The notes: generated from the sequence alone by a model not told the origin. A stretch of DNA of 64,000 nt from Tidjanibacter sp. (GCA_045543795.1 JAZPXV010000015.1:22953-86952); one strand, 5' to 3'; shown: positions 32,800 through 55,898, counted from the first letter of the stretch. Program-made: numbers and translations.

Positions 32800-32986
32800 A
32801 ATTGAAAATTGAAAATGGAAAATTGAAAATTTTTTAAGGGCCTTAATGACCTTAAAGCCCTTAAAGCCCCACAACCACTCCTCCCCTAAGTTAGGGGAGG
32901 TGACCGAAGGTCGGAGGGGTCTGCTCAAACACTCGTGCCAAAGGCACACCACAATTTTCAATTGTCCATTTTCAATTTTCAATTTC
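32800..32986. repeat. Composite MITE-like element with ~34-bp inverted arms of TTGAAAA heptads enclosing other modules
   Basis: The left arm AATTGAAAATTGAAAATGGAAAATTGAAAATTTT (32800-32833) pairs with the right arm ACAATTTTCAATTGTCCATTTTCAATTTTCAATTTC (32951-32986). The interior holds a 9-bp array (32833-32868), REP-like unit A, and GTGCCAAAGGCAC (32935-32947). Confidence 0.85.
32866..32924 (-). repeat. Two-hairpin REP-like unit, copy A
   Basis: The reverse complement reads GCAGACCCCTCC-GACC-TTC-GGTC-A-CCTCCCC-TAACTTA-GGGGAGG-AGTGGTTGTGGGGC. Confidence 0.85.
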
Positions 32987-33024
32987 AACCCGTCGTTCGA
33001 CTTTAGACGTTAGACAAAAAGAAA

Positions 33025-37240: not shown

Positions 37241-37300
37241 GATTTTAAGCCACTCCTCCCCTAAGTTAGGGGAGGTGCCCGAAGGGCGGAGGGGTCTGCC
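37241..37300 (-). repeat. Two-hairpin REP-like unit, copy B
   Basis: The reverse complement reads GGCAGACCCCTCC-GCCC-TTC-GGGC-A-CCTCCCC-TAACTTA-GGGGAGG-AGTGGCTTAAAATC. It lies 24 nt after the ftsK stop. Confidence 0.85.
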
Positions 37301-42318: not shown

Positions 42319-42365
42319 CTTTAAGGGCCCTTAAGGGCCTTAAGGACCTTAAAGTCCTTAAAAAA
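42319..42365. repeat. 9-10-bp CTTAAGG tandem array, locus 4
   Basis: CTTTAAGGGC CCTTAAGGGC CTTAAGGAC CTTAAAGTC CTTAAAAAA. Confidence 0.9.
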
Positions 42366-42418
42366 AACACTCCCCCTCTAAGTTAGAGGGGGTGTCGCGT
42401 AGCGACGGGGGCGTGTGT
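42361..42418 (-). repeat. Two-hairpin REP-like unit, copy C
   Basis: The reverse complement reads ACACACGCCCCC-GTCGC-TAC-GCGAC-A-CCCCCTC-TAACTTA-GAGGGGG-AGTGTTTTTTT. Confidence 0.8.
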
Positions 42419-42452: not shown

Positions 42453-42512
42453 ACAGACCCCCTCGGCCTACGGCCACTCCCCCTAACTTAGGGGGAGAGT
42501 GGTCGTGGGGTG
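42453..42512 (+). repeat. Two-hairpin REP-like unit, copy D
   Basis: ACAGACCCCCTC-GGCC-TAC-GGCC-A-CTCCCCC-TAACTTA-GGGGGAG-AGTGGTCGTGGGGTG. Confidence 0.85.
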
Positions 42513-55190: not shown

Positions 55191-55339
55191 ACAGACCTCT
55201 CCGCCCCTCCGGGGCACCTCTCCTAACTCAGGAGAGGGGTGGTCGTGGTGCTAACCTTTGGCAGTAGCAGGTGGAAAAACCACCACTACTCTCCCCCTGA
55301 GTTAGGGGGAGTGGCTGCAAAGCAGCCGAGGAGGTCTGT
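55191..55339. repeat. Inverted doublet (REPIN-like) of the two-hairpin unit, left of the DUF559 gene
   Basis: ACAGACCTCTCC-GCCCC-TCC-GGGGC-A-CCTCTCC-TAACTCA-GGAGAGG-GGTGGTCGTGG, then a ~35-nt centre, then CTCCCCC-TGAGTTA-GGGGGAG-T-GGCTGC-AAA-GCAGCC-GAGGAGGTCTGT. It ends 2 nt from the DUF559 stop codon. Confidence 0.9.
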
Positions 55340-55341
55340 CC

Positions 55342-55722
55342 TCACTTGGTTCCTCTACGCTCCACTACGGCCTGCTCAATGGTAGCAATAACCATATCAC
55401 TACAATTCCAAACAGCCTCGTTAGGTATACGCAACACTTCTATACCCTCTCGATTGAGAAACCTTGTACGCCTCTCATCTCGCGCCATCTCTTCATCCAT
55501 GTTATGGTGAATACCATCCACCTCAACACACAATCTTACCTCGGGACAATAAAAGTCCAACACATACGGCCCAACAGAGAATTGGCGATACCAGTGTGAA
55601 TTAGCCACCTTTTTCGCTCTCAACATCTTCCACATAGCGTTTTCCTCTGGAGTCGCTTTGCGGCGAAGTTTGCGGCGAAGTTCCAAACCCTCTGGCAAAT
55701 TGTTTGTGCGTTCTACTCCCAT
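55342..55722 (-). CDS. DUF559 endonuclease-domain protein (Vsr-like / PD-(D/E)XK fold)
   Basis: 126 aa. ATPEENAMWKMLRAKK...YRQFSVGPYVLDFYCPEVRLCVEVDGIHH...D..R..FL...G..VLR is the typical DUF559 core. The gene is more AT-rich than its neighbours. Confidence 0.8.
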   Translation of the reverse strand: MGVERTNNLPEGLELRRKLRRKATPEENAMWKMLRAKKVANSHWYRQFSVGPYVLDFYCPEVRLCVEVDGIHHNMDEEMARDERRTRFLNREGIEVLRIPNEAVWNCSDMVIATIEQAVVERRGTK

Positions 55723-55750: not shown

Positions 55751-55898
55751 ACAGACCTCTCCGCCCCTCTGGGGCACCTCTCCTAACTCAGGAGAGGAGT
55801 GGTCGTGGGTTAAAGGTTGGTTGCGGTTCTCACTCGCCCCACAACTACTCTCCCCCTGAGTTAGGGGGAGTGGCTGCAAAGCAGCTGAGGAGGTCTGT
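55751..55898. repeat. Inverted doublet (REPIN-like) of the two-hairpin unit, right of the DUF559 gene
   Basis: The arms are nearly identical to 55191-55339 (single C/T and G/A differences) while the central ~35 nt differ. The shared flanks TTTTACAGACC and GGTCTGTCCTCACTT are also conserved. Confidence 0.9.

Follow-up and report, generated by a model that had tools for sequence, protein, structure and literature searches.

A probably proliferating intergenic repeat of triplex-type layout in Tidjanibacter sp. and its DUF559 neighbours

Short GC-rich units with two hairpins recur in a stretch of 64,000 nt from Tidjanibacter sp. (GCA_045543795.1, JAZPXV010000015.1:22953-86952, or C15:22953-86952; hereafter the window), and they raise the question of what is being kept in them: a folded RNA at the ends of genes, a sequence like the repetitive extragenic palindromes (REPs), or another kind of element. 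All of the eight copies counted in the original prediction were present at their places, with the stems it quoted and with TAACTTA/TAACTCA loops. No match to the strict unit pattern was expected in shuffled sequence, and its occurrence was far above chance. The unit proved to be a hairpin-carrying variant of the known BoxC/PIT triplex-type repeats, neither a two-hairpin RNA nor a REP. It is probably a proliferating, fast-turnover intergenic DNA repeat with a triplex layout, in which a fold of single-stranded DNA and a cognate DUF559 protein would have their part. The genome comprised 1.93 Mb in 34 contigs with 52.7% G+C and was 94% complete. Several window loci shared about 94% identity with a metagenome-assembled genome (MAG) labelled Rikenellaceae bacterium SIG173, and identities to ruminant-gut MAGs labelled Tidjanibacter were 80-90%, which makes a gut bacterium of the Rikenellaceae the probable host.

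The conserved core, about 49 nt long, opened with ACA(G/C)A and a C-rich block of 7 nt (Py1). A GC-rich mini-hairpin (hairpin 1) and a single A separated this block from a second C-rich block of 7 nt (Py2), which the loop TAACTYA joined to a G-rich arm of 7 nt (Pu); AGT or AAT closed the core. Conservation was confined to the stretch from ACA(G/C)A to AGT/AAT. Hairpin 1, with a stem of 4-6 bp and a loop of 3-4 nt, was located in the linker between Py1 and Py2. Hairpin 2 was the Watson-Crick pairing of Py2 with Pu; it had 7 bp and a 7-nt loop, and counting the two pairs within TAACTTA (T-A and A-T) raised the stem to 9 bp and left a loop of 3 nt. Both hairpins of the predicted two-hairpin unit are thus real, and the description was incomplete in that the 5' flank is a third block mirroring the 5' arm of hairpin 2: Py1 is the mirror image of Py2 and the parallel complement of Pu. 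The layout, formerly regarded as constant, was not so; the 5' block varied (CCCCTCC, CCCCCTC, CCTCTCC, CGCCCCC, CCCCTCA) and co-varied with hairpin 2. The blocks of the subfamilies, in the order Py1 / Py2 / Pu, were as follows.

Subfamily 1: CCCCTCC / CCTCCCC / GGGGAGG, exact mirror.
Subfamily 2: CGCCCCC / CCCCCTC / GAGGGGG, one mismatch, at the mirrored site.
Subfamily 3: CCCCCTC / CTCCCCC / GGGGGAG, exact mirror.
Subfamily 4: CCTCTCC / CCTCTCC / GGAGAGG, exact mirror.
Subfamily 5: CCCCTCA / GCTCCCC / GGGGAGC, one mismatch, at the terminal position.

The upstream block fitted the mirror of its own Py2 best in five of six subfamilies. A loop-agnostic scan of the genome returned 277 three-block loci with one mismatch or better, 115 of which had an exact mirror block, and the block-shuffled genome gave none. 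Py1 as a direct repeat, capable of alternative Watson-Crick pairing with Pu, was rejected, as direct targets fitted worse and exact blocks numbered 13 direct against 115 mirror. In the same scan, the linker length, counting the mini-hairpin and the A, had its peaks at 12 nt and 14 nt, with mini-hairpin linkers ranging from 11 to 16 nt, and about 36 three-block loci had a short linker.

Pairing was maintained through substitution in the hairpins and in the third block alike. For 165 copies parsed from fixed anchors, without use of pairing, 626 of the 660 cells in the outer stem of hairpin 1 were Watson-Crick paired, compared with 428 +/- 8.5 in shuffles. When 76 distinct units, taken from this genome and from other taxa, were aligned without gaps, 97.5% of the cells over both hairpins were paired, compared with 86.2% after shuffling and 41-60% with slid partners. 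Two-sided changes occurred at eight pairs, with 133 double-changed cells against 33.7 expected, and G·U cells were nearly absent (3/1064). The compensatory stem changes reported earlier were thus confirmed, as paired substitutions exceeded chance in both hairpins. Furthermore, in the four parallel columns of Py1 and Pu, annotated as separate bracket types, 92.8% of the cells paired, compared with 82.7% in shuffles, and slid partners were worse; the 31 double-changed cells (13.2 in shuffles) were reached by none of 500 shuffles. The distinct, perfectly paired stems of hairpin 1 numbered at least 14 in the genome and 25 in the other taxa. Since pairing was kept through many double substitutions, the fold of a single strand matters and recent copying is not a sufficient cause, which upholds the earlier claim of selection on a folded nucleic acid.

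A hairpin-1 allele whose stem is imperfect owing to a T/C mismatch, GTCGC...GCGCC, was present in subfamilies 1, 2 and 4 here and in MAGs labelled Bacteroides and Prevotellaceae (loci L049, L058, L062 and L083). Because this allele recurs across subfamilies and MAGs, hairpin-1 alleles seem either to have passed from one subfamily to another, through recombination or conversion, or to be ancient and spread by horizontal transfer.

The copies in the window and the gene lying among them are listed below.

Unit A core, 32877-32924, minus strand: subfamily 1, beginning GCAGA and ending AGT; read on the minus strand, Py1 CCCCTCC (32913-32919), hairpin 1 GACC-TTC-GGTC (32902-32912) followed by A, Py2 CCTCCCC (32894-32900), loop TAACTTA (32887-32893) and Pu GGGGAGG (32880-32886).
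Unit A optional tail GGTTGTGGGG, minus strand: extends the unit to 32866.
Unit B core, 37252-37299, minus strand: subfamily 1, Py1 CCCCTCC, hairpin 1 GCCC-TTC-GGGC, Py2 CCTCCCC, loop TAACTTA, Pu GGGGAGG, without the GTGGTCGTGGGG tail.
Unit C core, 42369-42418, minus strand: subfamily 2, ACACA, Py1 CGCCCCC, hairpin 1 GTCGC-TAC-GCGAC, Py2 CCCCCTC, loop TAACTTA, Pu GAGGGGG, then AGTGTTTTTTTT, without the tail.
Unit D, 42453-42512, plus strand: subfamily 3, ACAGA, Py1 CCCCCTC, hairpin 1 GGCC-TAC-GGCC, Py2 CTCCCCC, loop TAACTTA, Pu GGGGGAG, tail AGTGGTCGTGGGG; the core ends at 42500.
Inverted doublet 1, 55191-55339, both strands: a subfamily-4 unit (plus) and a subfamily-3 unit (minus).
Doublet 1, first unit, 55191-55240, plus strand: subfamily 4, Py1 and Py2 both CCTCTCC, hairpin 1 GCCCC-TCC-GGGGC.
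Doublet 1, second unit, 55288-55339, minus strand: subfamily 3, Py1 CCTCCTC, Py2 CTCCCCC, hairpin 1 GGCTGC-TTT-GCAGCC.
DUF559 (PF04480) gene, 55342-55722, minus strand: 126 aa, between doublets 1 and 2, Vsr-like PD-(D/E)XK endonuclease fold.
Inverted doublet 2, 55751-55898, both strands: a near-copy of doublet 1.
Doublet 2, first unit, 55751-55800, plus strand: subfamily 4, hairpin 1 GCCCC-TCT-GGGGC.
Doublet 2, second unit, 55847-55898, minus strand: subfamily 3, hairpin 1 AGCTGC-TTT-GCAGCC, with one mismatch.

Unit C deviated in its 5' block from the consensus of the original prediction and started with ACACACGCCCCC. The GTGGTCGTGGGG tail, earlier taken for a constant part, was optional; units B and C and most genome copies lacked it, and it was found only in a subset, mainly in subfamilies 3 and 4 and in some of subfamily 1. 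The tail of unit D had an alternative pairing with the 3' arm of hairpin 1 (z -3.85), and doublet 1 as a whole gave a long-hairpin fold with ACAGACCTC/GAGGTCTGT ends (z -6.1). The optional tail AGTGGTYGTGGGG (32866-32879 and 42498-42512) allowed alternative folds and paired with Py1 in unit A, and its GTGGGG could also be read as a third strand of G/T type that would serve the G-arm.

Two further forms were observed in the genome. A second family of about 30 copies had the same architecture, with ACCCCTC, a GC mini-hairpin, A, CTCCCCT, (T/G)TCGT and AGGGGAG (for example C4:6132, C9:182756 and C3:57203). In addition, a long form of the unit was located outside the window at C29:17560-18290, C23:1793-1933, C21:2559-2638 and C19:7376-7457. 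Past Py1, hairpin 1 and Py2, the GC hairpin TGCGCG-AGGA-CGCGCA and GACAATTTCGACCA replaced the TAACTTA loop and the G-arm, and the form then continued into a second unit lacking the ACAGA head. The same GC hairpin was also found 3' of many subfamily-2 units (AATGTGCGCGAGGACGCGCA).

The copies in the genome numbered 173 by a simple regular expression and 208 by a profile search, and 189 of the latter, which covered 0.56% of the genome, parsed to the full layout. A unit was located within 120 nt of 19 of the 68 contig ends; as assemblies break at units, copy numbers in MAGs, and possibly DUF559 counts, are underestimated. The copies were essentially all intergenic, the 18 apparent in-gene cases being spurious short open reading frames (ORFs) built of the repeat or over-extended ORF starts. 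By spacer type, 22 were divergent (5'/5'), 35 convergent and 89 tandem, in either orientation; relative to the genes, 43 copies had the same orientation and 46 the opposite. The statement that all copies lie just 3' of genes therefore held for those in the window, and no such rule applied genome-wide, as the divergent spacers show. Neighbouring units at most 160 nt apart formed 56 inverted and 9 direct pairs.

The distribution among relatives was patchy and changed fast. In the genus, for which 25 species were compared, copy number ranged from 0 to 164 and 14 species had the motif; it was absent from the 16 other genera sampled in the order. The conserved parC-aroK spacer lacked the unit in 13 of 13 congeners. 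The spacer after ftsK lacked it in 12 of 13, with many spacers of just 0-66 nt, and G014 had a unit of a different subfamily there. Even in the sister genome of about 94% identity, unit presence differed in all three spacers compared. Because of the patchy copy number, the non-conserved spacers, the inverted pairing and the intergenic placement, the unit behaves in genomes as a proliferating element would, and unlike a regulator tied to particular genes. Spacers of the genus were also full of short tandem arrays, namely CTTAAGGNC-type 9-mers, AATTGAAAATTG-type 6-7-mers and GACGGTC/GACGTTA heptads (32800-33024 and 42319-42365 in the window; loci L138-L149, L105 and L088). These arrays were wholly different between species, even from the sister genome, and the flanking genes were collinear.

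Relatives of the unit were found well beyond the genus. In a contig scan, a hairpin 2 identical over its 21 nt was detected in MAGs with the labels Prevotella, Alistipes, Bacteroides, Phocaeicola and others, as well as in MAGs of Acidobacteria/Blastocatellia, UBP6 and Roseburia. The Roseburia contigs (L037 and L066), which carried a Bacteroidales-type subfamily, may be mis-binned. Copies in Prevotella MAGs read CCACCCC-TAA-CCCCTCC-TAACTCA-GGAGGGG, with a linker of 2-3 nt and no hairpin 1. These copies, which share the TAACTCA loop, tie the family to the classical layout and identify hairpin 1 as an optional structured linker. In soil MAGs of Acidobacteria gp5/Blastocatellia, CCCCTCC-TAACTTA-GGAGGGG was observed many times with CCACCCC as the third block (loci L023, L041, L052, L079, L082, L087 and L089); an A there occupies the mirrored site and, on the G-rich strand, would make a T.A-T triad.

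The classical layout is that of the PIT/BoxC/TMECO elements, which are defined as a hairpin with a mirrored third block (Holder et al. 2015, PMC4666352). Class II of these consists of a pyrimidine block, a purine block and a reverse-Hoogsteen block, and a class of the pyrimidine (Y) motif is obligatory on the complement (PMC4666352). The present unit had three blocks within the limits of 6-15 nt, whose bases suit either the triads G.G-C, A.A-T and T.A-T or the pair C+.G-C and T.A-T, with no more than one mismatch for stems of at least 7 nt. By its blocks it belongs to class IV when read on the C-rich strand, as the original prediction wrote it, and to class II, the purine motif, when read on the G-rich strand. 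It resembles BoxC/PIT/TMECO (Hoyne et al. 2000, via PMC4666352) in the three consecutive G/C-rich blocks, the third of which mirrors a hairpin arm, and in the coupling of class II on the G-rich strand to a Y-motif class on the complement. PIT elements are likewise intergenic, arranged in inverted pairs, independent of gene orientation and variable between strains (PMC4666352). The present repeat shares the many copies, the frequent inverted ("palindromic") pairs, the loci that vary between close relatives and the hugely different copy number in related strains.

The differences lie in the linker, the sequence and the hosts. Here the linker is a mini-hairpin of 4-6 bp, and its 11-16 nt exceed the loop lengths allowed by the search rules (1-6 nt for ITxF; 0-10 nt for Hoyne). 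For this reason, the published ITxF and Hoyne searches would miss the present unit. The blocks are 7-8 nt long, compared with 9, and the TAACTYA loop is conserved here. The hosts are Bacteroidales and Acidobacteria MAGs, compared with Proteobacteria or cyanobacteria. The TMECO pattern CCCTCNCCC-N3-6-GGGNGAGGG-N3-GGGNGAGGG had no match in the genome, even with two substitutions, and a covariance-model search of the whole window against Rfam 15 gave no match at the gathering threshold. Rfam in E-value mode returned only miRNA-hairpin noise for the doublet locus (25.8 bits against a threshold of 90). Thus, in architecture the unit agrees in part with a class of repeats already described, an outcome that the original prediction had counted against itself, while the sequence differs and no Rfam family matches.

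The label "REP-like" given earlier stands by analogy only. As with REPs, their inverted doublets (REPINs) and their REP-associated tyrosine transposases (RAYTs), the repeats are short intergenic hairpins rich in GC that number in the hundreds, show compensatory changes in their stems and are predominantly arranged as inverted doublets. In both systems, a small enzyme gene also lies between inverted copies, and its paralogs are flanked by different repeat subfamilies. Unlike REPs, the unit has a mirror-symmetric third block, and the bracketed gene is the Vsr-like PD-(D/E)XK DUF559. Membership in REP/RAYT was rejected, as no Y1/RAYT transposase (Y1_Tnp, PF01797) was matched in the 94%-complete genome; control genomes were positive. 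Integron attC sites are likewise recognised as folded single-stranded DNA with conserved structure and variable sequence. They are recombined by a tyrosine integrase in cassette arrays and lack a third block; the present unit, unlike them, has no integrase or cassette array.

The loops of hairpin 1 bear on the strand and on the nucleic acid concerned. The triloop was T-N-C in 87 of 122 cases (71%), which is G-N-A on the G-rich strand (GAA 53, GTA 18, GGA 9 and GCA 7, so that all four N were used), and GNA never occurred on the C-rich strand. The remaining 29% or so (AAA, AAC and others) were outside GNA. Loops of 4 nt were mostly GNNA on the G-rich strand, and the closing pair was C-G in 140 of 141. 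In other taxa, 37 of 69 triloops were T-N-C, and GNA on the C-rich strand was again absent. C(GNA)G is an exceptionally stable DNA mini-hairpin, formed by GNA triloops alone (PMC13037366, PMC3201870). Hairpin 1 on the G-rich strand is thus like the d(GCGNAGC)/d(C-GNA-G) mini-hairpins; these are a biophysical motif and no repeat family, and here the motif is embedded as the linker of a larger element. Purine-motif triplexes, moreover, do not form in RNA (PMC4666352).

These loops also weigh on the possibility that the unit is a structured RNA, a stabiliser or terminator in the 3' untranslated region with both hairpins selected in the transcript. Both hairpins do fold well in nearest-neighbour computations and co-vary, the window copies follow genes, a run of at least four T within 12 nt after the unit was found in 39 of the 189 units (21%), and pyrimidine-motif triplexes can form in RNA (PMC4666352). 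Against this, orientation to the genes was random, copies lay between divergent genes, 79% of the units had no T-run, G·U pairs were nearly missing, the units were not conserved at orthologous genes and Rfam gave no family. The loop bias, in addition, suits a mini-hairpin of DNA formed by the other strand, the G-rich one. The GC hairpin with a T-run oriented with the upstream gene, which makes an intrinsic terminator, was not the rule among the units. The RNA role suggested by the original prediction is therefore not favoured, and a structured RNA is unlikely. The relevant form is most likely single-stranded DNA, because G·U is nearly absent, gene orientation is random, divergent spacers are occupied, T-runs are few and the purine-motif triplex does not form in RNA. 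It is probably the G-rich strand, since the linker there reads C(GNA)G.

The DUF559 gene of the window is a candidate partner of the repeat. It matched PF04480 with 91.1 bits (cut-off 20.6), and the E. coli control genome gave no match in this search. DUF559 belongs to a Vsr-like PD-(D/E)XK clade, the closest solved structure being PDB 3HRL, an "endonuclease-like protein" (E 8e-11). The genome had three DUF559 genes, on contigs C10 and C17 and in the window, which were 53-58% identical. All three were bracketed by inverted units within 150 nt, an arrangement seen in only 9 of the 1471 crude ORFs. The flanking units were of subfamily 1 on C10 and of subfamily 2 on C17, and those of the window gene were the doublets of subfamilies 4 and 3. 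The hairpin-1 allele GCCC-GTT-GGGC had two copies in the genome, both flanking the DUF559 gene of C10. Within the genus, DUF559 was detected in 5 of the 14 repeat-bearing genomes and in none of the 11 repeat-free ones. The DUF559 genes of G007, G015 and G023 adjoined units, as did four more from other taxa in 820 kb of loci chosen solely for the repeat; the arrangement between inverted units was shared by all of these and the three genes here. No paper in the literature library that was searched linked DUF559 to repeats, and the link stands as an association.

An ordinary miniature inverted-repeat transposable element (MITE) or REPIN, moved in trans by a conventional transposase, would make the hairpins and the mirror block incidental and DUF559 a passenger. 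The long-hairpin folds of the inverted doublets, which end in ACAGACCTC/GAGGTCTGT, fit such an element, as do the inverted-pair preference, the high copy number, the patchy distribution and the repeat-rich congeners without DUF559. However, most copies were single 49-nt units; the doublets have inverted ends and single units do not. Target-site duplication was not evident in the flank consensus, the remodelled spacers hiding the junctions, and the genome had no Y1/RAYT gene. Furthermore, recognition of terminal repeats leaves unexplained why the mirror block co-varies across subfamilies and phyla, and all three DUF559 genes were bracketed, each by its own subfamily. A conventional transposase moving an ordinary MITE is thus an improbable source of the pattern, as improbable as the RNA role.

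A host-domesticated site for a protein or for chromosome organisation (like the sites in bacterial interspersed mosaic elements or REPs to which gyrase or IHF binds), or a pause site of replication or recombination, would owe its abundance to host function and not to selfish spread. This reading is the least likely of all: the units are strictly intergenic, they share spacers with many other short tandem arrays and E. coli triplex-motif (TM) loci have been linked to local instability (PMC4666352), but congeners with similar genomes had 0 to 164 copies, positions were not conserved even at 94% identity, and the identical 21-nt hairpin in distant phyla suggests horizontal spread.

For the proliferating triplex-layout repeat, the most likely mechanism is that its folded G-rich strand would be recognised by a cognate DUF559 protein during spread or homogenisation. 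The G-rich single strand would fold into hairpin 2 with the C(GNA)G mini-hairpin as linker, and the third block would run antiparallel along the purine arm, in triads of the types G.G-C, A.A-T and T.A-T. This form may be recognised, nicked or copied as the element spreads or is homogenised. The DUF559 nucleases between inverted units would be the cognate enzymes, and solo units and doublets would be non-autonomous copies.

Several results weigh against this account. The blocks are just 7-8 nt long, and two subfamilies have a non-canonical triad (C.A-T in subfamily 2). E. coli PIT elements had no effect in vivo on replication, promoters or terminators (PMC4666352). The covariation controls ignore kinship, and as hairpin-1 alleles are common to several subfamilies and genomes, the independent events number tens, not hundreds. 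No bias of orientation to the replication strand was found by the GC-skew and gene-orientation proxies, and the flank consensus showed no target-site duplication. In the sister-genome comparison, whole spacers were remodelled, leaving element ends and target sites unreadable. A metagenome scan for filled and empty junctions with the aroK-like protein (best identity 78%) gave no usable junction, nor did an exact look-up of that protein, which returned one 1.5-kb contig broken at the repeat. Moreover, several repeat-rich congeners had no detectable DUF559, such as G022 with 71 copies. The nuclease is therefore unnecessary for persistence of the repeat and is possibly a passenger.

BoxC/PIT/"triplex motif" repeats became known in the 1990s, and they still lack a known function, a mechanism of spread and a protein partner. 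The roughly 200 copies in this genome, in which three blocks change together, may be taken as comparative evidence that a three-stranded fold is maintained, beyond the hairpin. The family also indicates that published triplex searches, with their loop limit of 6-10 nt, miss variants with a structured linker. With three diverged DUF559 genes, each framed by its own subfamily, recognition of the repeat and the reality of the triplex become testable. A further reading, which is possible and should be held only tentatively, is that the clamp of the G-rich strand (hairpin, C(GNA)G and reverse-Hoogsteen strand) is the substrate of DUF559, and that DUF559 with its inverted units is an autonomous mobile element. 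In the same reading, its non-autonomous copies would comprise the solo units and doublets, roughly 200 in number, and by extension also the orphan BoxC/PIT repeats, and nuclease paralogs and repeat subfamilies would diversify together, in parallel to RAYT and REP. If so, this would be an undescribed class of bacterial mobile element.

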